Assembly (NCBI GenBank): GCA_900540395.1
Contig: UQFQ01000004.1
Coordinates: 23,765 to 87,764 of the forward strand
Length of the DNA stretch: 64,000 bases
Origin: an uncultured Mollicutes bacterium
GTDB taxonomy: Bacteria; Bacillota_I; Bacilli_A; RFN20; CAG-826
Direction: 5' to 3'
The translations under genes were made by a program, and so were the position numbers. Positions 1 to 61,430 of the stretch are shown piece by piece. The notes below the pieces were generated by a model. It saw nothing but the letters and a program-made list of their open reading frames with translations. It did no database searches and was not told where the DNA came from. Each line of letters begins with the position of its first letter. The stretch's first letter is position 1.

Positions 1-580
1 TGAAAAATTAGCCGATTCATTTTCACTTTTTCCTTCAATCGGTGCAAAAACAGCGGAGCGTATGGCATACGCTCTTTTAGATATGGATGAAAATGATGTT
101 TCACTTCTTGTCAAAAACATCGAAGAAGTTAAAGAAAAAATTCATCCATGTCCAATTTGTGGAATTTTAACCGAAGAAGATAAATGTTCAATATGTGCTA
201 GCGAAGATAGAAATCATGAACATTGTATAGTTGTAGCTTATTCAAAAGATGTTTTACCTTTTGAAAAAATTGGTACATATAATGGGGTTTACCATGTTTT
301 AGGTGGATTAATAAACCCAAGTAAAAATTTAACACCTGAAAATTTAAAAATAGAAGAACTCGAAAAAAGAATTGAAGATGAGGGAATAAAAGAGTTAATT
401 ATAGCTACTAACGCTACTCCTGAAGGCGAAGTAACAGCTCTTTATCTTTCAAAAATCTTAGAAAAAAAGAATATAAATATTACAAGACTTGCTTATGGAA
501 TGCCTATTGGAGCTTCTTTTGACTATATCGATTCACTTACTTTAGATAAAGCTCTAAAAGGTCGTACAAAATTAAAATAG
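1..580 (+). CDS. recR: Recombination protein RecR, 5' partial. The reading frame is open to the window start and the upstream residues KLADSFSLFPSIGAKTAER match the RecR helix-hairpin-helix N-terminus.
   Basis: C4 zinc finger CPICGILTEEDKCSICAS and Toprim-like C-terminal half. recR-tmk-holB synteny. Confidence 0.9.
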   Translation, partial: EKLADSFSLFPSIGAKTAERMAYALLDMDENDVSLLVKNIEEVKEKIHPCPICGILTEEDKCSICASEDRNHEHCIVVAYSKDVLPFEKIGTYNGVYHVLGGLINPSKNLTPENLKIEELEKRIEDEGIKELIIATNATPEGEVTALYLSKILEKKNINITRLAYGMPIGASFDYIDSLTLDKALKGRTKLK

Positions 581-590
581 GAGAAAATTT

Positions 591-1217
591 ATGTTTATTA
601 CTTTTGAAGGTCCAGATGGTAGTGGAAAATCAACAATCATCAAAAAAGTATATGAAAAGCTCATTAATGATGGTTTTGATATTGTTTTAACTAGAGAACC
701 TGGCGGTACTCCTATTGCTGAAAAAATTAGAGATATTATTTTAGATAATTCTAATGTTGCACTTGACGCTAGAACCGAGGCTTTACTTTATGCTGCAAGC
801 AGAAGGCAACATTTAGTTGAGAAAATACGGCCTGCCTTAAAAGAAGGTAAGATTGTACTTTGTGATCGTTTTTTAGATTCCAGTCTTGCTTATCAAGGTG
901 GCGGCAGAAATTTAGGCGTTCAAAACGTTTTAAATATTAATTTATTTGCCACAGAAAACACCTACCCTGATTTAACTTTATTCTTTGATATTGATCCTGA
1001 ACTTGGATTAAAAAGAGTCAGCCAAGATAAAAAAAGAGTTGCTGATAGACTCGATAATGAAAATGAAAATTTTCATGAAAAAGTTTACTCAACATTTAAA
1101 GAAATAGTTAATACAAATAGGCAACGAATAATTACAATCGACGCTTCAAAATCTATTGAAGAAGTCACTGAATGTGCATATAAAACTATAAAAGAAAAAC
1201 TAAATGGATTACATTAA
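591..1217 (+). CDS. tmk: Thymidylate kinase
   Basis: P-loop FITFEGPDGSGKST and LTREPGGT motif. RBS GGAGAA precedes the ATG. The gene lies between recR and holB. Confidence 0.9.
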   Translation: MFITFEGPDGSGKSTIIKKVYEKLINDGFDIVLTREPGGTPIAEKIRDIILDNSNVALDARTEALLYAASRRQHLVEKIRPALKEGKIVLCDRFLDSSLAYQGGGRNLGVQNVLNINLFATENTYPDLTLFFDIDPELGLKRVSQDKKRVADRLDNENENFHEKVYSTFKEIVNTNRQRIITIDASKSIEEVTECAYKTIKEKLNGLH

Positions 1218-2172
1218 CTACTTAAAAACATATCAACCTATTCCATATCAAATTTTTGAAAATGCTTTTAAGCATCATAAAATTTTTCATGCCTATTTAC
1301 TTGTTGGTGAAAAAGGCACTCCACTTTTAAACATTGCCAAGTTTTTAGCAGCAAGTATTATTGATCCAAAAAGTTCTCCTTTTGCAGATCAAAATTCTTT
1401 AATTTTTGAACGAATTTTTAATGAAAATTATGTCGATTTGCGAGTTTTTGATTCTACAAAAGGCCAAATTAAAATTGATGAGATACGTCAGCTTGAGACT
1501 GACTTTGCAAAGACAAGTTCAGAAAAATATTCAAAAAGGGTCTACATTATTAACCTAGTAGAAAATCTTTCAATTGATGCCACTAATGCTTTATTAAAAT
1601 TTTTGGAAGAACCTCTTTCTGATACCTATGCTTTCTTAACCACTGAAAACGATAAAAGAATTCTTCCGACAGTTTTAAGTAGGGTTCAAACGGTTCATTT
1701 TTCGTTGCTCCCACAAGAAGATTTAATTCATCAAGCCTTGTCTCTTGAAGTTGATGAAAAAGAAGCCGAAATTTTATCTTTTTTCTATAACGATGCCGAA
1801 TTAATAAAAGAAAATAAAGATAACAATAAAATTAATAAAATAATTGAACTTGGTTTAAACACTCTTTCTTGTTCTTCTTATCCTGAACTACTTAATTATT
1901 TATTGAATACAGTCTTTAAAACTCTTCAAGGAAAAGAAGAATTCAGACAATTTTATGATTTACTAATTGTTATTTTTAAAGAAACAATAAAAGTTAAATA
2001 TAAAGCGCAAATAGTCCTATCAAATTATGATAAAATACTAAATAAGTTAATATCTTTAAATAACATCGAAGATAAGGTTTTGACTTTAATGGATGCCAGA
2101 AACGAGATTAATTTTAATTTAAATTTAAACTTATTAACTTATTCTACTTTTAATAAAATTTTTGGAAATTAA
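1204..2172 (+). CDS. holB: DNA polymerase III delta-prime subunit (clamp-loader AAA+ protein)
   Basis: Size, the HAYLLVGEKG degenerate Walker A, and its position after tmk. Confidence 0.75.
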   Translation: MDYINYLKTYQPIPYQIFENAFKHHKIFHAYLLVGEKGTPLLNIAKFLAASIIDPKSSPFADQNSLIFERIFNENYVDLRVFDSTKGQIKIDEIRQLETDFAKTSSEKYSKRVYIINLVENLSIDATNALLKFLEEPLSDTYAFLTTENDKRILPTVLSRVQTVHFSLLPQEDLIHQALSLEVDEKEAEILSFFYNDAELIKENKDNNKINKIIELGLNTLSCSSYPELLNYLLNTVFKTLQGKEEFRQFYDLLIVIFKETIKVKYKAQIVLSNYDKILNKLISLNNIEDKVLTLMDARNEINFNLNLNLLTYSTFNKIFGN

Positions 2173-3031
2173 TATGAAATATTGTATAAGTGTAAAATTC
2201 GACGAATCAAAGAAAAATTACTTTTTTCAAACCGAAGACGAAACTATTTCGTTAAATGATTTTGTTGTTGTTGAAACAATTGTTGGTAAAGAAGTTGGCC
2301 AAGTTGTTTCAAATAAACAAGATTTAGAAAAAATGACCTTTGAAAAAGAAATTAAGCCTATTTTAAGAAAAGCGACCAAAAAAGATCTTCAAATATTCAA
2401 AGAAAATAAAGAAAGTGCACTTAAAGCAGGCGAAATTTTTGAAAAACTAACCAAAGAATTAAACCTTGATATGAGGTTAGTCAAAAGTGAATACACTTTA
2501 GATAAAGAAAAAATTCTTTTTACCTATTTCAGCGAAGAAAGAGTAGATTTTAGAGAATTATTAAAGCGTTTAGCCTCTTTACTTAAATGTCGAATTGAAT
2601 TAAGACAAATAACAGCTAGAGAAAGAGCCGCTTTAGTTGGCGGTTATGGTGTTTGTGGATTGCCACTTTGTTGTTCATATATGTATTCCAATCAAGAAGG
2701 CATTTCTCTAAATAAAGCCAAAAATCAAATGCTTACAATTAATATCCCTAAACTAAGCGGTGTTTGTGGTAAATTGCTCTGCTGTTTAAAATATGAAGAT
2801 GATTTTTATACTGAAGCCAAAAAAGATTTTCCACCAATCAATACAACATTTAAATATAATGGTGAAGAATTTAAAGTTTCAAGTTATAACATCTTAACTA
2901 AAATTGTTAAATGTGTAAGCACTGAAAATGTTGAATTTTTGCCATTAGATGAAGTTAATAAATACGTTAAGGAAAGTGGTAAGTTTCCTCAAAAAAAGCA
3001 ACCAACAAAACCTGTAAATAAAAATGCCTAA
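2162..3031 (+). CDS. ricT: PSP1 C-terminal domain protein (YaaT/RicT-like)
   Basis: Cys-rich PSP1 motifs (GGYGVCGLPLCCSYM..GVCGKLLCCLKYE). Conserved position after holB. The true start may be the ATG at 2174. Confidence 0.8.
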   Translation: MEINMKYCISVKFDESKKNYFFQTEDETISLNDFVVVETIVGKEVGQVVSNKQDLEKMTFEKEIKPILRKATKKDLQIFKENKESALKAGEIFEKLTKELNLDMRLVKSEYTLDKEKILFTYFSEERVDFRELLKRLASLLKCRIELRQITARERAALVGGYGVCGLPLCCSYMYSNQEGISLNKAKNQMLTINIPKLSGVCGKLLCCLKYEDDFYTEAKKDFPPINTTFKYNGEEFKVSSYNILTKIVKCVSTENVEFLPLDEVNKYVKESGKFPQKKQPTKPVNKNA

Positions 3032-3842
3032 TACTTTATATCTAGTCGCTTCTCCTATCGGAAATTTAAATGATGTTTCACCAAGAGTAAAAGAGGTTTT
3101 ATCTTCTGTTTCTTTTGTTGCATGCGAAGATACAAGAAATACTTCTAAACTTTTAAGTTTAATTGGAATTTCTAAACCTTGCATTTCATGTCATGAACAT
3201 AACGAAAAAGAAGAAAGTTTAAAGATAATCAAAAAAATTCAAAATGGCGAAGATGCTGCTTATTTAAGTGATGCTGGCTATCCTTGTATTAGCGATCCAG
3301 GCTTTTTATTAACTCAGGAATGTATAAAAAATAATATCAAGGTCGTACCTATTAGCGGTCCAAATGCAGCTCTTTTAGCTTTAATTGCTAGCGGCTTAGA
3401 TACAACTCATTTCATGTTTTATAGTTTTTTAGATGCTAAAATTTCAAAAAAAGAAGCTGAAATTGCAGAGTTTTCAAAATTTCCATATACAATTTTGCTT
3501 TATGAAGCGCCTCATAGAATTAACGAAACTTTATCTTCTTTATATAAAGTTTTAGGTAATAGAAAAATTTGTATTGCTAGAGAACTAACTAAATATTATG
3601 AAGAGTTTATTCGTAGCGACCTTAAAACACTAGTCGAAGAAAATAAAGAATATAAAGGCGAACTCGTAATAGTTTTAGAAGGCAAAAAAGAAGAGAAGAA
3701 TTTTGAAATAAGTGACGAACTTTTACTTAAAGCGAAAGAATTTGAAAAACTTGGGTATTCAAAAAAAGATATCGCTTCTATTTTATCAACCTTCTATAAA
3801 GTTAATAAAAACAAAATATATAAAGAATTAATTAAGGATTAA
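3024..3842 (+). CDS. rsmI: 16S rRNA (cytidine1402-2'-O)-methyltransferase RsmI (tetrapyrrole-methylase fold)
   Basis: N-terminus LYLVASPIGNLNDVSPR..ACEDTR is typical of RsmI/YabC. It follows yaaT as in Bacillus. Confidence 0.85.
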   Translation: MPNTLYLVASPIGNLNDVSPRVKEVLSSVSFVACEDTRNTSKLLSLIGISKPCISCHEHNEKEESLKIIKKIQNGEDAAYLSDAGYPCISDPGFLLTQECIKNNIKVVPISGPNAALLALIASGLDTTHFMFYSFLDAKISKKEAEIAEFSKFPYTILLYEAPHRINETLSSLYKVLGNRKICIARELTKYYEEFIRSDLKTLVEENKEYKGELVIVLEGKKEEKNFEISDELLLKAKEFEKLGYSKKDIASILSTFYKVNKNKIYKELIKD

Positions 3843-6800
3843 TCGTTATATTTTTCAATCAAATAGTTATACTTTTTAATAATCTCTGGATTAACTTTTA
3901 ATACTTTTCGATCAAAAGTGTAAAGACCATTGTATTCAGTTTCACAATCAGCTAGTTGAGTATAAATAACTCCTTTTAATATTCCCTTATCTATAAGTTC
4001 AATAAATTTTTTATAAAGCTTTTCATAGTGAATTGTTAAATTGGCGCTTGTAAAGGAAACTGAGTGAGAGAAAAAACCTTTATATAGTGAGTGTCCTTTT
4101 ACTTTTAAACCGCGTCCACCGCATTCAGAAAGTATATAAGGTTTATTTTGCTTTTTATCTTTTCTAACTCTAGTTTGGAATATATAAGCGTGAATGGAGT
4201 AAAGGTCTCTCTTATTATTTATATACCAACCACTTGTTGAATCATAAATACGACTATCATCACATTCTTTTGCTAAATCATAAACTGCATCAGGATCGAA
4301 TTCTCCCCATCCTTCATTAAACAAGGTGTAGCAGATAATTGATGGATAATTATAAAGTTCAGTCAAAATTTCTTGAAGTTCCCATAAATACATTTTTTTC
4401 GATTTCTCGTTTTTTCGCCCAAGCTTCTCTTCATTCATCAAATTAAGTTTATTAAATAGTTTAATGTTAAATCTAGGGAAGGCAGTATTAAAGAACTTAT
4501 ATTTATATCCACCATTTGGAATATCTTGAATAACAAGCATTCCATGTTTATCACAAAGATAATAGAAGTAGTCCATTTCTACTTTTATATGTTTACGAAT
4601 CGTATTAAATCCTAAGCCTTTTAAATTTAAAATATCCTTTTCATAATCTGCATAACTGCTTGGTGTTAATGAATTAGGGTAATAATATCCTTGGTCTAAT
4701 AAACCATTTAAAATTACCTCTTTGTTATTTAAAAGCACTTTAGAACTGCCATTTTCTTCTTTAATTTCTATTTTTCTAAATCCAAAGTAGGATTTTACAA
4801 CATCCTTTTTATATCTAATTTCTACATTATATAAATAAGGATTCTTATAAGACCAAGAAATTGGATTTTCTAAAGTTATTAAATTTTCTTTATTGGTTTC
4901 TAGATTATACGCTTTGCCATCAAGGAAAATAGTCGCTTGTTCAAATCTAGTATTATTAGTCATTACAATAACGCCAACTTGATTTAAGTCGTAATGAATT
5001 TTAAACTTCACTCCTCTTATGTAGTCTTTTTCAACAACTTCCATCCAAACGTTTTTATAAATTCCACTACTTGAGCTATAAAAACAAGTTTGTGGATTTA
5101 AAACTTGTTTACCGCGACTATAATAAAGAAAATCTGTAAAGTCATGAACTTTAACTATAATCTCATTTTCTTCTTTTAAAAAAGAAGTAATATTAACTGA
5201 AGTTTTAGTATAACCGGAATCATGATAAGTAACAAAATTACCATTTATAAACAAATCAAATGTTTGATCAACGCCATCTAAATGAAGAATATAGTTTTTA
5301 TTTTTATCAAAATCATCAATTTTTAAAAATCGACGATAAACAAGCATCTCGTCTACTTCTAAAAGATGATTAATATTAGAAAAAGGAGATTCAACCGCAA
5401 ATGGAACATTTACCTTTTTATCAAAATCCTTGTCTCCACCTTTCTTAACAATTTTTAAATCCCACAAACCATTTAAATTAATAAAAGAATCTCTAACTAA
5501 GTTTGGGCGTGGATATTCTTTAAAAGATACCTGATTAACATCTCTAATTTCTTTATCTTGTTTTTTGAGAAGGTCATTAACTAGATGACCATTATTTTTT
5601 GGAAACTTCTTCGTATATTTAAAAACAAAATATAAAGGTATTAAAACAAGCATCAAAACTCCTAAGGCTACTAAATACCCATAATTTGAAGGCAAAGCGT
5701 TAGGGAAATTAAATTGATCATAATAAATTTCACCATAAGCATTATTAAGTGCGCTACCAATGAATGGTCCAATACACATTGGTAAAGCAACAACAAAAAT
5801 CATTCTTATGCCCATAAATATTCCTTCATTACCTTCAGGAATATATGATCTAATTAAGGAATTTAAAATTGCTGGAAAACTTACATAACCTAAAATCATT
5901 ATTAATCCGCTGATTGAAGCATAGATGATTTTAGCAATATCATTTTCAATATAAGGAGCAAAAAACATCATGAATAAGCCCAATGCTGTTATTAAAAGTG
6001 TTGGGATTAACATTTTAGTTTTGCCTTTTTTATCTGCTCTAAAGCCAATAAAAACACTTAAAACAGAACCAAATAGTAATGATATAGCCATAACTATTGC
6101 AAAAGGCGTTAAGAAGGAATCTCCAAGATTAGAAATCTCACATGTTCTTTCTACATAAATCATTAAATAAGGAAAATATATTTGAACCGAAACATTAAAG
6201 ATAAAATAAGCAATTAAAATGATATACAAAAGTTTATTTTTCTTTATAGTTGTAGGTTTGAATCCTTCAAGTAATAAAGAAAAATATTTCTGTTCGCTTC
6301 TTTCATCCTTCTTTTCTTTAGGGAGTAAGAATAAGGAAATGATACCAACAACAAAAACTATTCCACCAACGATATAGAAAAATAAGTCCCATCTATTTCC
6401 ATTAGCTTCCGTTGTTAAACCATTTAGCCCAACAAAAATAATAAGCATTGCAATAAGTGGAAGAACGCCTAAAACGCCTTCAACTTTTGCCCTGTTTTTG
6501 TCTTCAATATTTTTAGTTATATAAGCGTTAAAGGCTGCGTCATTACCTGTTGATCCAAAAAAGGTCATTATGCAATCAATTACAATGACCATAATGGCGG
6601 CAGTAATCGCACTCATAGAAATTGGAATAAGTTCAACAGCACCATAAACATTTAATAATCCAAATGAGGCTGTTGATATACCCCATAAAATATAGCCAAA
6701 AGAAATGAATATTTTTCTTTTTCTAAGCTTATCGCTTAATCCACCCATAAAAATGGTTGTCAAAGTTGCTGTAACTGCACTTAAAGCAGTTGTAATAGAA

Positions 6801-6991
6801 ATTAATAAATTATAATCAAACTTCTCTGAAACAGGAGCATTAAAATTCAAATAAGCTATATATGTATTTAAATACATATTTTCAATTGACCAAGCAAATT
6901 GTCCTGCTAAGCCAATTAAAATAACAATTATCCACATTCTTAAGCCAACTTTGTTGGCTTTATTCAAATTAGCTGTTTGTGCTTTCTTCAT
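3839..6991 (-). CDS. Fusion protein. The N-terminal ~480 aa form a 12-TM GPH-family (glycoside-pentoside-hexuronide) cation symporter. The C-terminal ~570 aa are glycoside hydrolase family 2 (beta-galactosidase, beta-glucuronidase or beta-mannosidase class).
   Basis: GPH signature GGLSDKLRKRKIF after TM2 and multiple hydrophobic helices. GH2 sugar-binding, immunoglobulin-like and TIM-barrel regions carry the candidate acid/base motif TLFNEGWGE and nucleophile motif ILSECGG. The likely start is the ATG at 6991, with a GGAGG RBS 9 nt upstream, rather than 7021. Confidence 0.7.
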   Translation of the reverse strand: MKKAQTANLNKANKVGLRMWIIVILIGLAGQFAWSIENMYLNTYIAYLNFNAPVSEKFDYNLLISITTALSAVTATLTTIFMGGLSDKLRKRKIFISFGYILWGISTASFGLLNVYGAVELIPISMSAITAAIMVIVIDCIMTFFGSTGNDAAFNAYITKNIEDKNRAKVEGVLGVLPLIAMLIIFVGLNGLTTEANGNRWDLFFYIVGGIVFVVGIISLFLLPKEKKDERSEQKYFSLLLEGFKPTTIKKNKLLYIILIAYFIFNVSVQIYFPYLMIYVERTCEISNLGDSFLTPFAIVMAISLLFGSVLSVFIGFRADKKGKTKMLIPTLLITALGLFMMFFAPYIENDIAKIIYASISGLIMILGYVSFPAILNSLIRSYIPEGNEGIFMGIRMIFVVALPMCIGPFIGSALNNAYGEIYYDQFNFPNALPSNYGYLVALGVLMLVLIPLYFVFKYTKKFPKNNGHLVNDLLKKQDKEIRDVNQVSFKEYPRPNLVRDSFINLNGLWDLKIVKKGGDKDFDKKVNVPFAVESPFSNINHLLEVDEMLVYRRFLKIDDFDKNKNYILHLDGVDQTFDLFINGNFVTYHDSGYTKTSVNITSFLKEENEIIVKVHDFTDFLYYSRGKQVLNPQTCFYSSSSGIYKNVWMEVVEKDYIRGVKFKIHYDLNQVGVIVMTNNTRFEQATIFLDGKAYNLETNKENLITLENPISWSYKNPYLYNVEIRYKKDVVKSYFGFRKIEIKEENGSSKVLLNNKEVILNGLLDQGYYYPNSLTPSSYADYEKDILNLKGLGFNTIRKHIKVEMDYFYYLCDKHGMLVIQDIPNGGYKYKFFNTAFPRFNIKLFNKLNLMNEEKLGRKNEKSKKMYLWELQEILTELYNYPSIICYTLFNEGWGEFDPDAVYDLAKECDDSRIYDSTSGWYINNKRDLYSIHAYIFQTRVRKDKKQNKPYILSECGGRGLKVKGHSLYKGFFSHSVSFTSANLTIHYEKLYKKFIELIDKGILKGVIYTQLADCETEYNGLYTFDRKVLKVNPEIIKKYNYLIEKYND

Positions 6992-7340
6992 TTGATAAGA
7001 CCTCCTTTTCCTCTCTTTCAAAAGGTGTAAGTCCTATAACGTCGCTGACTTTAACTGAAAAAGCAATGCCGCTACCTTTAGTATCTAAACCAACCTTTTT
7101 ATATATATTAAGCATAACGTCATCTTTTATTTCTTCATCAACTAAAATAAAAACAATTTCTTTTTCAGGTTGAATAACAATTCCAAAAAAGGTCCCAAGT
7201 TCTTTATTTCCTGTGCCATGAGCCACAAAAGTTGTTCCGCCTCTTGCTCCGCATTCCTTTGCAGCATCCATTACATCTCCAGTATAACCTTGGTTAACGA
7301 TAACAATAATTAATTCATAATTCTTTTTGTTTTCTTCCAT
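6969..7340 (-). CDS. P-II-like (GlnB superfamily) small signalling protein, paralog 2
   Basis: About 110 aa with a beta-alpha-beta ferredoxin-like pattern (ELIIVIVNQGYTGDVMDAAKECGARGGT..GTGNK). The start is taken at the ATG at 7340, preceded by AGGAGG. Translationally coupled to its neighbours. Confidence 0.6.
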   Translation of the reverse strand: MEENKKNYELIIVIVNQGYTGDVMDAAKECGARGGTTFVAHGTGNKELGTFFGIVIQPEKEIVFILVDEEIKDDVMLNIYKKVGLDTKGSGIAFSVKVSDVIGLTPFEREEKEVLSNEESTNS

Positions 7341-7761
7341 TATCGTTCCTCCTTTTATTTTCTCTAACATTAGCTAAATATTTATAAACTAAAACACCAG
7401 CTACTGAATCAATATCCATGCAGAAGCTGATTCCTTTTAATTTTTTGTTCGCCTCAAATCTAGTTTTAATAATTTCTTTTAAAGGTTCAATCTCGTCAGT
7501 TTTTACTAAAGACATAACGATATCTTTTTTAGTTTCGCCTATACCTAAAATATCATAAATATCTTTTGTGGCTGTCCCGGTTCCAAAAATTTTAAATGAA
7601 GCCGCAACTTTTTTCTTTTCAAAAGCACGAACAAAATAATCGCCTTGACCACGATCAACAATAATGACCATGATTTTCAATTTTGCTATTTCATAGTCTT
7701 TATCGTAATTTGCTGAGCCTTCTTTGACTTCTATTTCTTTCTTTTCTTTCTTAAAAAGCAT
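7315..7761 (-). CDS. P-II-like (GlnB superfamily) small protein, paralog 1, with a ~28-aa N-terminal extension
   Basis: KIMVIIVDRGQGDYFVRAFEKKKV..GTGTA pattern. Immediately downstream of the DUF1538-like membrane gene. Confidence 0.55.
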   Translation of the reverse strand: MLFKKEKKEIEVKEGSANYDKDYEIAKLKIMVIIVDRGQGDYFVRAFEKKKVAASFKIFGTGTATKDIYDILGIGETKKDIVMSLVKTDEIEPLKEIIKTRFEANKKLKGISFCMDIDSVAGVLVYKYLANVRENKRRNDNGRKQKEL

Positions 7762-7769
7762 AATTTCAC

Positions 7770-9326
7770 CTACAAATGAATAATTTGTGCATCGTTAGTT
7801 TCTTTAACTTGCTTTTGAACCATTTTGTGTCTAAGACGAATTTTAATTGTAGCTTGTAAGCCTAAAAGTTGAATGCAAATTACAGGAACAGCACTAATTA
7901 AACCAATTACACCAAATCCACTATTTTCTCCAACAATATTAGCAATGCCCATTACAAAAGGAAGAACAAAACAAGAAGACATTGTTCCACTAGCAACACC
8001 GCCAGAATCAAAAGCAATAGCTGTATAAATATCTGGAACTGCAAAAGATAAAGAAATACTTAATAAATATAAAGGCACATAATAATAAACAATTGAAAAA
8101 CTACCAAATAATTCACGAACAACCTCAAGAACAATAGCTAAAGCAACACCTAAACAAAGAGTTATTAACATCTTATATTTAGAAATTGTTCCTCCACTAA
8201 CTTCTTCGACTTGTTGATTTAAAATATGTACACCAGGTTCAACAAGAACAACAGCAAAACCAATTACGATTGCTAAAATAATTAAGAGATAATTGTAGGC
8301 TCCCCCATGTACTGGATCTCCTAAATTATTTCCTAAAGAAAAACCTACTGGAATTAAACCAAACTTTGCCGCAACCAAGAAAATCGTGAGTCCAAAGTAG
8401 GTATAAATAAAACCTAAAAGAATCTTTATAAGCTCTTTGATTGGTAATTTAATAAAAATAAATTGATAAATAATAAAGAATATAAATATAGGAACTATTG
8501 CAAGCAAAACTTCTAAACAAGTTGAACTTAAGACTTCAAAAAATGGAGTATCTACATCTATTGTATTTTTGAGTTGACTAAAATCAGTAAAACTACTTAA
8601 ACACAAGAATAGGATCATTGTGCTAATCAAGGGTCCAATAGAACAAATTCCAGTAATACCAAAGGAATCACTTGATGCGTTTTTACCACCTCTAACAGTA
8701 GCAACACCTGCTCCAAAAGTAAGCAAGAAAGGAACTGTGACTGGCCCTGTTGTTACACCGCCAGAATCAAAAGCAATCGAAATTATAGCTTCGCCGTTTT
8801 TTCCATCAAGCAAACATCCTAAAGCAAAAACTATAAAATAAAAGAAAATTAGCCATATTTTCAAGTTTTGTTGAAAGATAATTCTTAATAAGCCAATAAC
8901 TAAAAATATTCCAACGCCTAATCCTATGCAAATTTTTAATGTCCAAGGATTAATTGTAGAAGACAATAAGTCGCCTAAAACAGTCAAATCAGGTTCGGCA
9001 ATTGTTATCATTAAACCTAACAAAAAAGAAATTATAACCATGAAAAATATAGATTGTTTCTTAGTGATGCTAGAACCAATATATTGACCAACCTTGCTCA
9101 TCGATATTTCACTACCAAAAGAAAACATTGCCATTCCTAAAATCAAAAAGATAAGACATATCAAAAAGGTAATAAGCATGCTTACGGAAATGGTTTCTGA
9201 AGGCATCAAAAAAGAATATTGTAATCCAAAAATTACAATAACTATCAAAGAAATAGGCACAACACTAATGGCAGCTTCTAATAATTTTTGCCAGGCTTCT
9301 TTAAGCATATTATTATTATAATTCAA
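7770..9326 (-). CDS. DUF1538-family polytopic membrane protein made of two homologous halves
   Basis: About 14 predicted TM helices. The internal repeat AIAFDSGGVTTGPVTVPFLLTFGAGVA and AIAFDSGGVASGTMSSCFVLPFVMGIA is seen directly. Family assignment is from memory of the Pfam DUF1538 and P-II gene-neighbourhood association. Confidence 0.65.
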   Translation of the reverse strand: MNYNNNMLKEAWQKLLEAAISVVPISLIVIVIFGLQYSFLMPSETISVSMLITFLICLIFLILGMAMFSFGSEISMSKVGQYIGSSITKKQSIFFMVIISFLLGLMITIAEPDLTVLGDLLSSTINPWTLKICIGLGVGIFLVIGLLRIIFQQNLKIWLIFFYFIVFALGCLLDGKNGEAIISIAFDSGGVTTGPVTVPFLLTFGAGVATVRGGKNASSDSFGITGICSIGPLISTMILFLCLSSFTDFSQLKNTIDVDTPFFEVLSSTCLEVLLAIVPIFIFFIIYQFIFIKLPIKELIKILLGFIYTYFGLTIFLVAAKFGLIPVGFSLGNNLGDPVHGGAYNYLLIILAIVIGFAVVLVEPGVHILNQQVEEVSGGTISKYKMLITLCLGVALAIVLEVVRELFGSFSIVYYYVPLYLLSISLSFAVPDIYTAIAFDSGGVASGTMSSCFVLPFVMGIANIVGENSGFGVIGLISAVPVICIQLLGLQATIKIRLRHKMVQKQVKETNDAQIIHL

Positions 9327-9387: not shown

Positions 9388-9405
9388 GCAAAACTCAATT
9401 ATTTT
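9388..9405 (+). repeat. Copy 1 of the dispersed intergenic motif GCAAAACTCAATTATTTT
   Basis: Exact 18-mer shared with 32581, 39168 and 42152 (reverse complement). Confidence 0.7.
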
Positions 9406-9424
9406 ACAAAATTTCAAAATTGTT

Positions 9425-9460
9425 AATTAAAAGAAAAAAGCGCGTTTATTTTGCGCCTTT
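9425..9460 (-). terminator. Rho-independent terminator after the RluA-family gene. It is bidirectional, with A/T runs on both sides.
   Basis: AAAAAAGCGCG-tttatttt-GCGCCTTTTTT GC-rich hairpin overlapping the stop codon. Confidence 0.5.
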
Positions 9461-10414
9461 TTTGTTTGATTTATTGAATAAACCTTCAAATTCATTAGGT
9501 ATTTTTGTTGATAGTTTATAAGTCTTTCCACTAATTGGATTTTTAATAATTAGTTCATAAGCGTGTAAACAAAGTCTGCCTATTGGGTTTTCTGGTTCGC
9601 CATATTTGTCATCGCCTAAAACGTAATGCCCTAAACTTCCAAGTGTTACTCTGATTTGATTTTTTCTACCGGTAAAAATAGAAACGTCTAAAAGTGAGCA
9701 TTTCTCATTTTCTTTTAAAACTTTGTAATCAGTAATACATCTTTGAGCTTTTTTATCTTTAGAGGAAACAACATACATTAAATTTAAGGCGTTCATTCTT
9801 AAATAATTAACGATATGTTTTTCTTTTTCGTCCATTACTCCTTCGACAACGGCATAATAACCTCTTTTTGAAACAAGATCATTCCAACTGTTTTGAAACT
9901 CCTCTTTTAACTTTTCGTTTTTAGCAAAAATTAATACACCACTTGTTTCTTTATCTAGTCTATGAACAACATAAATTCGATTATGCTTGTCTTTTGCCTG
10001 AACATAATCCATAACCATTCTATAGGCGGTTGAGGATTTTTCTTTATCACTTGCAACGCTTAATAAGCCAAAAGGTTTGTTTATTGCAATAATATCGCTA
10101 TCTTCATAAATTATCGGTAAATCTTTTCTTGGTTTTTTACGAATAGGTTTTTTAGAAATAATCAAAGAGTCGCCTTTTGTTAATCTAAAATTAAATTGAC
10201 TAACTGGCGCTCCATCGATTGAAATCAAATGATGTGATAAAAGTCCCTTTGCGTTATTTCTTGAAAAATGAAGTTCTTCAATAAGGTATGTTAAAAGTTC
10301 AGAATCTTTTTTAACAATAAATTCTTTTATATCAAGTTCTTTTTTTGATTGATATTCTTCTAAGCTTTTTCCTTTTAATCTATTTTTTAAATTTTCTTTA
10401 TAATTCTTATTCAT
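9446..10414 (-). CDS. rluD: RluA-family 23S rRNA pseudouridine synthase (RluD-like, N-terminal S4 domain)
   Basis: S4-like N-terminus and catalytic motif [15 protein letters not shown]. Confidence 0.85.
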
Positions 10415-12032
10415 CTTCTAATTTAATTTGGTTAGCTGCTTTAATAAATCCTAAAAATAATGGGTGTGGTTTGAGTGGTCTAGATAAAAACTCTGGGTGG
10501 AATTGACAAGCTACAAAATATGGATGATTTTTTAACTCAACAATTTCACAAAGATTAGTTTGTGGATTAACTCCACTAAATGTTAAGTTTCCATCAGAGA
10601 ATAATTCTTTATATTTGTTATTAAATTCATATCTATGTCTATGACGTTCTCTGATCAAATCTTGACCGTATAAATCATATGTTTTTGTACCTTTAACCAA
10701 AGCACAATCGTACTCACCAAGCCTCATAGTGCCGCCCATCTTAATTCCTTTATATTGGTCAGGTAAATAATCAATGATATTATTCTTGCAATTTTCATCA
10801 AATTCAGTGGAATTAGCATCTTCAAGTTTTAAAACATCACGAGCATACTCAATCAAAGCAAGTTGCATTCCTAAACAAAGACCTAAATAAGGCAAGTTGT
10901 TTTCTCTAGCATACTTAATGGCTTTCATTTTTCCTTCTACGCCTCTTTTTCCAAATCCACCAGGAACAATAATGCCTTGAACATCACCTAGCACTTCACC
11001 AACATTTTCATCAGTTAAGTTATCGCTATTAACCCACTTAATTTCTACCGATTTATCAATTGCATAACCAGCATACTTTAACGATTCAACAACAGAAATA
11101 TAAGCGTCATGTAAGGAAACATATTTTCCAACAAGGGCAATTTTTACGCTCTTTTTAAGTCTTCTAATTTTTTCTATAAGTTTGACCCAGTCGCTCATAT
11201 CGGCTGAAGGCAAACAATCTAAATTCATATGTTTTACGATTAAATCATCTAAGTGTTGCTTTTGTAAATTTAAAGCAACTTCGTAAATGATTGGGACATC
11301 TTTAACACTAATTACAGCTTCATCACTTAAATTGCAAAATAAAGCTACTTTTCTTTTTGATTCGACGTCAATATTAACTTCGCATCTTAATAAAAGGGCA
11401 TCTGGTTGAATTCCTAAACCCGTTAGTTCTTTAACACTATGTTGTGTTGGTTTTGTTTTTATTTCTCCAGTGGTTTTTAGATATGGAACAAGAGTGTTGT
11501 GGACGAAGAAAGTATTTTCATATCCTAATTCTCTTCTAAGCTGACGAATGGCCTCTAAAAATGGGAGAGATTCAATATCACCAACGGTTCCACCAATTTC
11601 AACAATACAAACATCGGTGTCGCCTTTTGCATTAAAAGCTTCAAATAATCTTGCTTTTATTTCATTAGTAATATGAGGAATGATTTGAATAGTTGCCCCT
11701 AAAAAGACTCCTCTTCTTTCTTTTTCTAATACTGCACTATAAACTTTACCACTAGTTACACTACTTTCTTTTGTTAAGGAAGTATTGATAATACGTTCAT
11801 AATGTCCTAAATCAAGGTCTGTTTCAGCACCATCTTTAGTAACAAAAACTTCGCCATGTTGATATGGAGACATAGTACCTGGGTCAATATTTAAATATGG
11901 ATCCAATTTCATGGAAAAAACATTAAGGCCTCTTCTTTTGAGTAATCTTCCTATACAGGCTGCACTAATTCCTTTGCCTAAACTTGAAACAACACCACCT
12001 GTAACAAATATAAATTTCATCTTTTTTTCCAT
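10407..12032 (-). CDS. pyrG: CTP synthase
   Basis: [16 protein letters not shown]-terminus and glutamine amidotransferase GLCLGMQ..HPEF motifs. Confidence 0.95.
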
Positions 12033-12083
12033 ATTTAAAACCCTCGTAATTAAGAAATATTAAAAATATATAAATGGGTAGCC

Positions 12084-12118
12084 CTTAATATTGTAAAAGA
12101 AAGGTCGGCCTATATCAA
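12084..12118 (-). promoter_or_regulatory. Sigma-A-type pyrG promoter (TTGATA-17-TACAAT) with predicted TSS at GGGC and a 52-nt leader
   Basis: Read on the minus strand. The GGGC initially transcribed sequence is the hallmark of CTP-sensing reiterative transcription at pyrG in Bacillus. Confidence 0.4.
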
Positions 12119-12203
12119 ACGATATCTTGTTAATTTTGTTCTTTAATTTGCGTCTTTAATTTCTTAAAAAATTAGTGAGTTAGAAACCATTAAGAATCAA
12201 AGA

Positions 12204-12263
12204 AAAAAAGCCTGTATAAATCTTGTATTTTACTAAAAGATGTAAGTTTTGCAGGCTTTTTTA
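12204..12263 (-). terminator. Long imperfect hairpin with flanking A and T runs downstream of glcK (bidirectional terminator candidate)
   Basis: AAAAAAA-GCCTG...CAGGC-TTTTTT. Confidence 0.4.
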
Positions 12264-12286
12264 AAAAATTATTATATTTTTTCTAT

Positions 12287-13252
12287 TTAATTTAAATTGT
12301 CCATTGCTAAACAAGCACATCCAATAATGCCTGCATCGTTTTTTAAACTAGCAATTTTAATTTCAACTTTTGGTGTATGACGATACCCGTAATGGTACTT
12401 TTCACAATAAGCTTTTACTTTATCTAAAAGATAGTCACCTTGATTAGAAATTCCACCGCCAATAAGAATAATTTGTGGTCTAAATATATTACAGAAATTT
12501 AAAATACCTTCACTTAAATATTTAACATAGGTATCGATGACTTTTATTGCTGCTTCATCACCTTTTTTAGAACATTCAAAGCTTGTTAATCCGGTTACTG
12601 ATTCAATATCGTGATCACAATAATCCCACATAATAGAATTTGGATTCTTTTTCATTTCTTCTTTTGTAAGTTTAAGAAGAGCACTTGCACTAGCATAAGC
12701 TTCAAAACAACCCCTTCTACCACATGCACATTCGTGTCCGTCGACAACAATTACTGTATGGCCAAGTTCAGCTCCTTTTCCATCAACACCTTCAAAAAGT
12801 TTATCATCGATAACAACTCCGCCACCAATTCCGGTACCTAAAGTGAGTAAAACAACATCAGTATAACCTTTAGCAGCACCAAATCTTTCTTCACCAAGTG
12901 CAGCAACGTTTGCATCATTTGATAAGAAAATAGGTAAATTTAAATCTTTCAAATAATCTTTTAATGGAACATCTTCAACATAAAGATTACAAGCATAATC
13001 AATTGTTCCAAGTTTATTATTAACAACGCCAGGAATACCAAATCCGATTGCAAGAGGTTTCATATTATTATCTTTTGCGTAATCAACCATCTCTACCATT
13101 AAAGCCTTAATATCTTTTAATAAAGCTTCTTTGCCACCATTAACACTGTTGGTCTTTATTGAACCTTTGTGCAAAATTTTGCCTTGTTCATTTACCAAAC
13201 CAGCTTTAATAGACATTCCTCCAACGTCGACACCAATATAAACATTTTCCAT
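12287..13252 (-). CDS. glcK: ROK-family glucokinase
   Basis: ROK signature and Zn-binding motif HECACGRRGCFEAY. N-terminal ATP-binding YIGVDVGG motif. Confidence 0.85.
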   Translation of the reverse strand: MENVYIGVDVGGMSIKAGLVNEQGKILHKGSIKTNSVNGGKEALLKDIKALMVEMVDYAKDNNMKPLAIGFGIPGVVNNKLGTIDYACNLYVEDVPLKDYLKDLNLPIFLSNDANVAALGEERFGAAKGYTDVVLLTLGTGIGGGVVIDDKLFEGVDGKGAELGHTVIVVDGHECACGRRGCFEAYASASALLKLTKEEMKKNPNSIMWDYCDHDIESVTGLTSFECSKKGDEAAIKVIDTYVKYLSEGILNFCNIFRPQIILIGGGISNQGDYLLDKVKAYCEKYHYGYRHTPKVEIKIASLKNDAGIIGCACLAMDNLN

Positions 13253-13503: not shown

Positions 13504-13861
13504 TGGTGGAGATGCGGAGAGTCGAACTCCGGTCCACATATCCCCCTACAAAGACCACTACAGTTTATTTGAGGTTATAAATTTCATGGTTTATCAATCT
13601 CAACGAACTTTACACCACTAGATTATATTTTTTCATTCTTGTCCCATAATCATCGAACAAGACCTAACTCCCTAAATTGAGAAGCGTTAATTAACCAGGA
13701 GTAAATTAATTAAGCCCCACGCAAACTCTATATAGAGTTACTGACTAAGCAGCAAAAGCGTAATTGAAATTTCTGTTGCCAGATAATTTTAAGTTTGTGA
13801 TTACGTCACAACTCGACTGCAATCTATGCCAAAGGATACATGTCGAAACCAGTACATCCCC
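13504..13861 (-). ncRNA. ssrA: tmRNA (SsrA)
   Basis: The 5' end GGGGATGTACTGGTTTCGACATG and the tRNA-like 3' end GGAGTTCGACTCTCCGCATCTCCACCA are both present (minus strand). An internal tag reading frame ends ...GNRNFNYAFAA followed by TAG. Confidence 0.85.
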
Positions 13862-61291: not shown

Positions 61292-61312
61292 AAAATTCAA
61301 TTATAATTATTA

Positions 61313-61396
61313 AGCCGTTACGAGCAATCTTTTCGAACCAGGTCAGGATAGAAATATAGCAGCCTTAAGATTATGATTGTCTGTGTAACGGTTTTA
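61313..61396 (+). ncRNA. ffs: Candidate small (4.5S-type) SRP RNA
   Basis: The segment CCAGGTCAGGATAGAAATATAGCAGCC resembles the SRP RNA domain IV core of E. coli 4.5S RNA (CCAGGUCAGGUCCGGAAGGAAGCAGCC). It is closed by a terminal helix GCCGTTAC/GTAACGGT, preceded by TATAAT at 61302 and followed by a T-run. Confidence 0.55.
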
Positions 61397-61430
61397 TTTT
61401 GCTCAAAAATGCGATACTATTACTTTAATT

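Follow-up and report, generated by a model that had tools for sequence, protein, structure and literature searches.

Few signalling proteins are as widespread as those of the P-II type, yet only a handful of their transporter partners (AmtB, SbtA) are understood. In these two systems, GlnK controls AmtB and SbtB controls SbtA (bioRxiv 10.1101/2023.08.10.552651). Here we describe a locus at which two divergent P-II proteins accompany a membrane protein of another family, DUF1538. The locus lies in a stretch of 64,000 nucleotides (nt) from an uncultured Mollicutes bacterium (contig UQFQ01000004.1, positions 23,765 to 87,764; the whole stretch is hereafter called the window, and positions given without a locus name refer to it), with a G+C content of about 30%. 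Four tightly spaced open reading frames (ORFs) on the minus strand, at 3839–9326, encode an internally duplicated DUF1538 membrane protein, two small P-II-like proteins that we call PII-A (148 amino acids, aa) and PII-B (123 aa), and a 1050-aa protein in which an MFS permease is joined to a GH2 glycosidase (MFS::GH2). An earlier note on this DNA had reported four packed ORFs with overlapping or abutting junctions, and the ORF list of the window agrees with it in coordinates and in the reading of the junctions. We consider it probable that the DUF1538 protein, PII-A and PII-B constitute a P-II-gated cation/proton transporter module, to which MFS::GH2 was later added as a passenger.

The sole functionally characterised member of the DUF1538 family is UmpAB from Halomonas zhaodongensis, a heterodimer of two DUF1538 proteins with seven transmembrane segments (7-TM) each, which carries out pH-dependent Na+(Li+,K+)/H+ antiport (PMC5484666). 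This activity was shown in E. coli vesicles with a clone that held no P-II gene, and the paper names no P-II partner (PMC5484666). The description of the window protein in the earlier note as an uncharacterised transporter-like protein is thus in need of qualification, as its family contains a characterised antiporter. DUF1538 has also been listed among the cation-transport features that are predictive of growth pH (PMC13255231). A literature search on DUF1538, PF07556, UmpAB and P-II–antiporter operons, with most subscription-journal papers outside its reach, returned nothing beyond the UmpAB paper and works citing it, and in none of these is DUF1538 tied to P-II; two other leads, a random barcode transposon sequencing (RB-TnSeq) study of a methanogen and a study of Borrelia BB0017, proved irrelevant. 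In RefSeq such neighbours go under 'DUF1538 domain-containing protein' and 'P-II family nitrogen regulator', with no function assigned to them.

To establish which genes belong together, we surveyed gene neighbourhoods from the transporter side and from the P-II side, keeping in each survey the best 80 of about 470–590 confirmed matches. On the transporter side, a DUF1538 profile was searched against GTDB species genomes and the neighbours at 80 loci were recognized with hidden Markov models (HMMs) of the PII-A and PII-B families. The loci carry the labels Clostridia, Bacilli, Bacteroidales, Fibrobacter and Sphaerochaetaceae. In 77 of the 80, the genes for PII-A and then PII-B come immediately after DUF1538, and the remaining three contigs end within 900 nt; two of the 77 (L070 and L086) carry the PII-A/PII-B pair as a single fused ORF. 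On the P-II side, PII-B was sought in metagenomes, giving 80 loci, 67 of them with at least 500 nt and 51 with at least 2.1 kb of sequence upstream. PII-A lies directly upstream of PII-B in 66 of the 67, and DUF1538 lies upstream in every one of the 51. The single exception among the 67 (L152) encodes a truncated-NUDIX::PII-B protein and has neither PII-A nor DUF1538.

The cassette recurs between unrelated flanking genes in Bacillota, Bacteroidota, Fibrobacter and Sphaerochaetaceae, and with a single P-II gene in Alphaproteobacteria; in Fibrobacter and another lineage it was seen in its three-gene form. Its composition varies at the edges of this distribution: alphaproteobacterial plasmids carry a split pair of DUF1538 genes followed by one P-II gene of the PII-B type, and in Peptoclostridium a fused DUF1538 gene is followed by a tandem P-II gene (PII-A::PII-B). 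In all, P-II and transporter genes are adjacent and co-oriented in at least five phyla or classes. The universal partner, conserved and ancestral, is PII-B, and PII-A is its divergent duplicate. One further locus, L024:5551–10408 in a metagenome-assembled genome (MAG) of 'Candidatus Scatosoma sp.', shows two copies of the cassette in head-to-head inverted orientation that score identically with the HMMs, which is probably an assembly palindrome.

Natural gene fusions point in the same direction as the neighbourhoods. Many members of the PII-A family, of 214–307 aa, carry two matched stretches, with the Pfam P-II model on the C-terminal half, and for this reason we read them as PII-A::PII-B fusions in gene order. 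A 654-aa protein found on two contigs (P0266) consists of two DUF1538 repeats fused C-terminally to PII-A, and a separate PII-B gene then follows. Among the proteins sampled, neither PII-A nor PII-B was ever joined to MFS or GH2. The natural fusions speak for a physical association of the three proteins; they suggest equal numbers of each, with 1:1:1 as the likely stoichiometry, and would mark a cytoplasmic C-terminus of the transporter as the likely side of attachment. Canonical P-II proteins, for their part, are homotrimers. Very long DUF1538 ORFs at L074 (and also L015, L018 and L033) were considered as further fusions and set aside, the extensions of L074 and L018 having no Pfam match; they probably reflect an open frame or masked sequence.

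The sugar permease-hydrolase has a different distribution. An MFS-GH2 gene follows the cassette at one locus in each survey, L011 (from the window's own species) among the 80 from species genomes and one among the 80 from metagenomes, and both are almost identical to the window. The four-gene order, with the MFS::GH2 fusion, is shared by an 81%-identical relative (L001), and it also occurs in L011 and L096, these relatives spanning 81–98% identity. At 65% identity (L002–L004) there are five genes, with the MFS permease (464 aa) and the GH2 protein (583 aa) encoded separately and overlapping by 11 nt. At 52% identity, a 'Bacilli bacterium' relative (L005/L006) carries DUF1538, a 138-aa protein and a 109-aa P-II protein, with no MFS-GH2, in the same slot as in the window, between the pseudouridine-synthase and rsmI genes. 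The housekeeping genes to either side of this slot, namely recR, tmk, holB, a PSP1-domain gene and rsmI (62–3842) on one side and a pseudouridine-synthase gene, pyrG and a ROK kinase gene (9446–13252) on the other, keep their order in L001–L006, down to 52% identity, and MFS-GH2 is therefore an insertion.

These observations bear on the idea of a carbohydrate module gated by a metabolite or by energy charge, in which the P-II pair would couple or gate the uptake and hydrolysis of sugar by MFS::GH2, with or without participation of the DUF1538 protein. The MFS::GH2 start does overlap the PII-B stop by 23 nt with a strong ribosome-binding site (RBS) ahead of it, and the four-gene order is kept at 81–98% identity, as are the five genes at 65%. 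Nevertheless, the scarcity of MFS-GH2 after the cassette in both surveys, its absence from the same slot in the 52%-identical relative and the fact that the sampled fusions join PII-A and PII-B to each other or to DUF1538, and never to MFS or GH2, make us regard this explanation as highly unlikely. Given the two-way co-occurrence, the fusions and the confinement of MFS-GH2 to the window's clade, the P-II pair belongs to DUF1538 and not to the sugar permease. The functional unit is DUF1538 with its P-II protein or proteins, and MFS-GH2 is a lineage-specific addition. The picture in the earlier note of a P-II pair sandwiched between, and linking, a transporter and a sugar permease-hydrolase consequently does not hold, as the conserved unit ends with PII-B. 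MFS::GH2 would share the transcript and is probably translationally coupled; most likely it is a passenger and not a P-II target.

We then asked whether the two small proteins are P-II proteins and of what kind. PII-B (6969..7340, minus strand) scores 32 bits with the Pfam P-II model (cut-off 25), and 34 of 34 members of its family match this model. It has 1685 homologues, with about 58% identity reached in Fibrobacter, and is a conserved, non-canonical P-II protein with the hallmarks GARGGT, GTGN, QPEKE and G-x-G-I-A-F. Its profile matches solved GlnB/GlnK chains at E values of 7e-5 and weaker, the best being 9p1x, a 105-aa 'P-II family nitrogen regulatory protein'. PII-A (7315..7761, minus strand), a divergent P-II-like protein with a lysine-rich N-terminal and a helical C-terminal extension, matches no Pfam model above threshold, and a search of the single sequence against the PDB gave a chance match only; its homology is visible by profile–profile comparison alone. 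Aligned in this way, the PII-A family (1684 representative clusters in an exhaustive profile search) matches the PII-B family with an hhalign probability of 96.4% and an E value of 1.3e-9, and as single sequences the two proteins share 22% identity (E 0.001). On the strength of the hhalign comparison, the 148-aa protein is assigned as a true paralogue of the P-II protein, in keeping with the two divergent paralogues that the earlier note had recognized.

The fold could be examined on a natural PII-A::PII-B fusion homologue (P0263). Its AlphaFold2 (AF2) model, with a predicted local distance difference test score (pLDDT) of 79.5 and a predicted template modelling score (pTM) of 0.69, shows strand-helix-strand-(short helix)-strand-helix-strand in both halves, that is, beta-alpha-beta twice, and Foldseek aligns it to GlnK/GlnB with a probability of 1.0 and template modelling (TM) scores of 0.6–0.75. 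Judged from the profiles and from this model of a homologous fusion, PII-A and PII-B are both predicted to have the P-II fold, as the earlier note had supposed.

Within that fold, the ligand-site residues have changed. Judged by alignment gaps, the beta2–beta3 segment is about five residues shorter than in canonical P-II proteins, whose flexible T-loop has some 20 residues, and it is modelled as a short helix. The T-loop motif Y-[KR]-G-[AS]-[AE]-Y, with the Tyr51/Ser49 site, was not found in the PII-A or PII-B family alignments. The nucleotide signature of canonical proteins is [ST]-x3-G-[DY]-G-[KR]-[IV]-[FW]; the B-loop of PII-B reads G-(S/Q)-G-I-A-F where they have G-D-G-K-I-F, so that K90 is replaced by an invariant Ile; R38 is replaced by Asn, Q39 is not conserved, and R101/R103 are absent, with no C-terminal Arg. 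The equivalent segment of PII-A is K-G-I-S-F. On the alignments, then, PII-A and PII-B lack both the canonical T-loop and the ATP-binding signatures, and neither is a canonical P-II protein. Conservation in the two paralogues is highest in the segments that would line the pocket and in those equivalent to the T-loop, GARGGT, GTG(N/T) and (Q)PEKE or GETKKD, a pattern typical of a ligand or target site. A relationship to DUF970/PstA had been suggested in the earlier note and found no support: neither protein nor family matches the DUF970/CdAMP_rec Pfam models (searched to E 1 with PII-A and to E 0.1 with PII-B). Matches to DUF2179 occur below threshold in 6 of 12 PII-A family members.

The orphan PII-B mentioned above was found at L152:1038–1538 (plus strand) as a 166-aa ORF in which a truncated NUDIX domain, with the Nudix box present, is fused to P-II; it is flanked by the genes for an FtsX/MacB-like permease and, in convergent orientation, for a P-type ATPase. 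This NUDIX::PII-B protein may give a faint hint of a nucleotide ligand.

The altered pocket raises the alternative of a scaffold: PII-A and PII-B would then be constitutive cytoplasmic components with a structural or assembly role in the DUF1538 transporter, and not ligand switches. Such a role would sit well with the near-obligate two-way co-occurrence, with the covalent fusions to the transporter and between the P-II proteins, and with the missing ATP/2-oxoglutarate residues and long T-loop; it is the loss of canonical nucleotide-binding residues that keeps this alternative alive. Against it, all characterised P-II superfamily members bind small ligands, to our knowledge, and in the present proteins the pocket-lining and T-loop-equivalent segments are the most conserved. 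In addition, UmpAB performs antiport in E. coli vesicles with no P-II on the clone (PMC5484666). We judge the scaffold role unlikely. Because UmpAB works without P-II and because the best-conserved segments are the pocket and the T-loop equivalent, we favour P-II proteins that act as regulators of the DUF1538 transporter and not as core subunits of it.

The DUF1538 protein itself (7770..9308, minus strand) supports the internal duplication of a 14-helix protein that the earlier note had proposed. Pfam DUF1538 matches two stretches of the 512/518-aa chain (E 8e-107), and the two halves are homologous to each other, with 24% identity over 202 aa (E 2e-15). Each repeat carries an AEP and an FDSGGV(T/A)(T/S)G motif, and in an alignment of 96 homologues E105, D181 and D434 are invariant and E357 nearly so. 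The AF2 model (pLDDT 85.6, pTM 0.85) is all-helical, with helices broken at the motifs. Scores with the NCBIfam UmpA and UmpB models (NF041627 and NF041628) are weak, at 136 bits for an equivalog cut-off of 500 and 132 bits for one of 490, which places the protein, by sequence, in the UmpAB superfamily as a distant relative and not an equivalog. Its two repeats correspond to the two homologous 7-TM units of UmpAB, which belong to the same Pfam family; unlike the separate UmpA and UmpB polypeptides, they form one 512-aa chain, and the relation is distant. It is 94% identical to the DUF1538 protein of a MAG labelled 'uncultured Bacillales bacterium ERR321628-bin.40' (L011). Foldseek found no match of the AF2 model to solved structures at E <= 1e-3, and the DUF1538 sequence profile found none in the PDB; among the top partial matches by structure are the Na+/H+ exchangers NHA2 and SLC9C1. 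Given the activity of UmpAB, the conserved carboxylates, these partial matches and the growth-pH feature, monovalent-cation/proton antiport is the best available guess for the function of the DUF1538 protein, by analogy.

The C-terminal tail of this protein (7770–7800) ends in a D-x-Q-I-I-H-(F/L) motif that is invariant or nearly so in 96 homologues of at least 41% identity, and it is of low confidence in the AF2 model (pLDDT 41–55). The tail could be a docking peptide for a separate PII-A/PII-B pair. As a universal docking motif it was rejected, being absent from the Peptoclostridium and Methylocystis proteins. On a Chelativorans plasmid (L091:3783–4055), the first DUF1538 gene is annotated with 90 aa and the second with 244 aa; the first may be truncated or decayed, and an intact P-II gene adjoins.

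It could be argued that the module is indeed P-II-regulated and that DUF1538 carries some other substrate, such as ammonium, bicarbonate, an organic acid or some other metabolite, with the antiport of UmpAB as a side activity. The well-studied pairs AmtB–GlnK and SbtA–SbtB do move nitrogen and carbon species (bioRxiv 10.1101/2023.08.10.552651), the window protein falls far under the UmpA/UmpB equivalog cut-offs, and its substrate is unconstrained by any matching solved structure. Moreover, the laboratory that described UmpAB has reported Na+/H+ antiport for several unrelated families from the same KNabc screen, and the assay may catch secondary activities. Set against this, UmpAB antiport is the only experimental datum for the DUF1538 family, the paired conserved carboxylates fit cation/proton coupling, and in the loci inspected the cassette has no consistent link to genes of nitrogen or carbon assimilation. 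On balance, we find a non-cation substrate rather doubtful, and retain the cation/proton transporter as the probable reading.

Our working model is as follows. A single-chain, internally duplicated secondary transporter of the DUF1538 (UmpAB) family, most likely a monovalent-cation/proton antiporter, would use four conserved membrane carboxylates at broken helices. PII-A and PII-B would assemble on its cytoplasmic face in a 1:1:1 complex, and upon binding of a small-molecule ligand the pair may switch transport on or off or let it run in one direction only, in the manner of GlnK on AmtB and of SbtB on SbtA. In the window's lineage, an MFS permease and a GH2 exo-glycosidase would have been inserted as a pair downstream of PII-B and later fused into the 1050-aa protein. 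The general idea of the earlier note, that P-II proteins gate a membrane transporter, finds backing by analogy in this scheme, with a change of target.

Several points weigh against this model. Binding and gating are inferred by analogy, and the cation/H+ assignment leans on one distant homologue, with UmpA/UmpB scores far under their cut-offs. The lost ligand-site residues and the short T-loop mean that the P-II pair might be constitutive structural subunits instead of sensors. Given the 23-nt overlap of PII-B and MFS::GH2 in the window, there may be a second, lineage-specific P-II target. One orphan PII-B, the NUDIX::PII-B protein, exists outside the cassette, and both surveys are biased to sequences that resemble the window's proteins.

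The layout of the locus suggests joint expression of the four genes. The DUF1538 gene can start at a TTG at 9326 (518 aa) or at an ATG at 9308 (512 aa), the latter giving the length of most close DUF1538 homologues, and stops at 7770. After 8 nt follows the ATG of PII-A at 7761, and an AGGTGA spans the DUF1538 stop codon. The PII-A ORF (7761..7315, minus strand) overlaps the start of PII-B by 26 nt: the PII-B frame is open over 7370..6969, and its likely ATG at 7340, preceded by AAAGGAGG with the RBS AGGAGG, gives the 123-aa protein. The frame of MFS::GH2 is open over 7021..3839 (minus strand), and its likely ATG at 6991, with AAGGAGG ahead of it, produces the 23-nt overlap with the PII-B stop at 6969. 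The spacing of the junctions is similar in relatives, by their own gene calls, and since it is kept there it is not a chance feature of the window.

At the upstream end, a promoter-like site (TTAACA-17 nt-AATAAT, 9398..9426, minus strand; 10 of 12 matches in a consensus scan, and a consensus match only) lies within the 137 nt that separate the DUF1538 gene from the pseudouridine-synthase gene upstream and is likely to be the operon promoter. A terminator scan located a GC-rich hairpin with T-runs on both strands at 9440..9456, directly after the stop (9446) of the upstream pseudouridine-synthase gene, which reads GGCGCAAAATAAACGCGC TTTTTTC on the minus strand and probably insulates the operon against upstream transcription. 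The same scan revealed no terminator-like site on the minus strand within 3839–9326. At the far end, the MFS::GH2 stop overlaps a convergent rsmI-like gene (3024–3842) by 4 nt. Based on the junction overlaps, the upstream hairpin and promoter-like site, the lack of an internal terminator and the convergent rsmI-like end, the natural reading is one transcription unit with probable translational coupling, which agrees with the operon that the earlier note had proposed. Rfam at gathering thresholds detected no riboswitch or leader near the operon in the window, and a search upstream of the cassette at nine diverse loci, made for a clue to the ligand, likewise returned no match. The sole Rfam matches in the 64-kb window are a tmRNA at 13504–13861 (minus strand, 134 bits) and a small SRP RNA at 61309–61400 (plus strand, 51 bits).

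The product of the fourth gene is a genuine fusion of a permease with a glycosidase, as the earlier note had recognized. Pfam finds MFS_1 and the N-terminal, middle and C-terminal GH2 domains on the one 1050-aa chain. The permease half (5621..6991, minus strand; residues 1–457) has about 12 hydrophobic segments by hydropathy and matches MFS_1 at E 1.8e-35; MFS_2 (PF13347) gave no match to the window protein at E up to 0.01, so that the name GPH symporter used in the earlier note finds no support, and one split homologue carries a weak MFS_2 flag. The glycosidase half (3839..5524, minus strand; residues ~490–1050) follows after an in-frame linker of about 30 residues (window ~5525–5620), at the place where L002:11739–11749 has the 11-nt overlap of the MFS and GH2 genes. 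Identity to the split relatives L002–L004 is 69% for the MFS half, measured against their stand-alone 464-aa MFS protein, and 51% for the GH2 half, measured against their stand-alone GH2 protein. Because the 65%-identical relatives are split and the window and its closer relatives are fused, the gene fusion can be dated within this clade.

Among solved structures, the best relative of the GH2 half is 7SF2 (BACCELL_01794, uncharacterised), with an end-to-end alignment at E 9e-76; next comes 9J6N, a Streptomyces beta-D-galactofuranosidase. Its 'FNEGWGEF' and 'LSECGGRGL' segments align to the motifs of 7SF2 and 9J6N, and the NE acid/base and the nucleophile Glu are kept, with catalytic roles as defined for ORF1110 (PMC11627007). 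The substrate specificity of the GH2 clade that holds BACCELL_01794, the galactofuranosidase and BtGUS is mixed or unknown (PMC11627007); the window protein resembles this clade in its full-length alignment to 7SF2 and its catalytic motifs, and differs in being joined to the C-terminus of an MFS permease. Since about 12 hydrophobic segments precede it, the glycosidase half is predicted to be cytoplasmic, and the fusion would import a glycoside and cleave it on arrival. Although of smaller interest than the cassette, MFS::GH2 offers a clean, datable case of a permease and a cytoplasmic glycosidase that joined an unrelated operon and then fused.

We compared the cassette with other systems built on P-II-like proteins. 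NifI1/NifI2, which work together as a hetero-oligomer, are, like PII-A and PII-B, two divergent P-II paralogues encoded side by side and presumably forming one regulatory unit. Their target is reportedly dinitrogenase and their signal is said to be 2-oxoglutarate; it is thus a soluble enzyme that they act on, whereas the partner here is a membrane transporter. PstA/DarA (DUF970) and the DUF2179 domain of YitT-family proteins share with the present proteins a non-canonical P-II fold with altered loops, and in the case of DUF2179 the P-II-like domain is part of a membrane protein (PMC6516651); the difference lies in the lack of any DUF970/CdAMP_rec match here and in DUF2179 matches that stay below threshold.

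The closest parallels are GlnK–AmtB and SbtB–SbtA, in which a P-II or P-II-like protein plugs the membrane transporter encoded beside it. As in those systems, a gene for a protein of the P-II fold lies directly downstream of, and co-oriented with, the gene for a secondary transporter, the linkage extends across phyla, and gating by a cytoplasmic sensor is expected. In contrast to them, the transporter belongs to DUF1538, with a fold for which there is no solved structure, and is served by two P-II paralogues instead of one; the T-loop equivalent is short and predicted to be helical, and the canonical ATP/2-oxoglutarate residues are absent. The fusions here imply a 1:1:1 arrangement, and nitrogen- and carbon-assimilation genes are not linked.

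What is known, therefore, is the principle of a P-II protein beside a transporter; what appears to be new is the partner family, the pairing of non-canonical P-II proteins and the implied stoichiometry. The identification of a near-obligate P-II partner family, DUF1538/UmpAB, which numbers thousands of proteins, many from gut and rumen bacteria, and has one characterised representative and no solved structure, makes testable the controlling signal, the true cargo and the docking of a P-II hetero-pair on a two-repeat transporter. If the DUF1538 cassette forms a class of its own, it would tie P-II signalling to cation and pH homeostasis, or to the handling of another substrate, in many gut and rumen anaerobes. 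We tentatively put forward, as a proposal to which we give slightly less than an even chance, that DUF1538 with PII-A and PII-B represents a third, phylogenetically widespread class of P-II–transporter signalling complex after GlnK–AmtB and SbtB–SbtA, one in which a non-canonical P-II hetero-pair would bind 1:1:1 to a pseudo-symmetric transporter without a solved fold and respond to a ligand outside ATP, ADP and 2-oxoglutarate.

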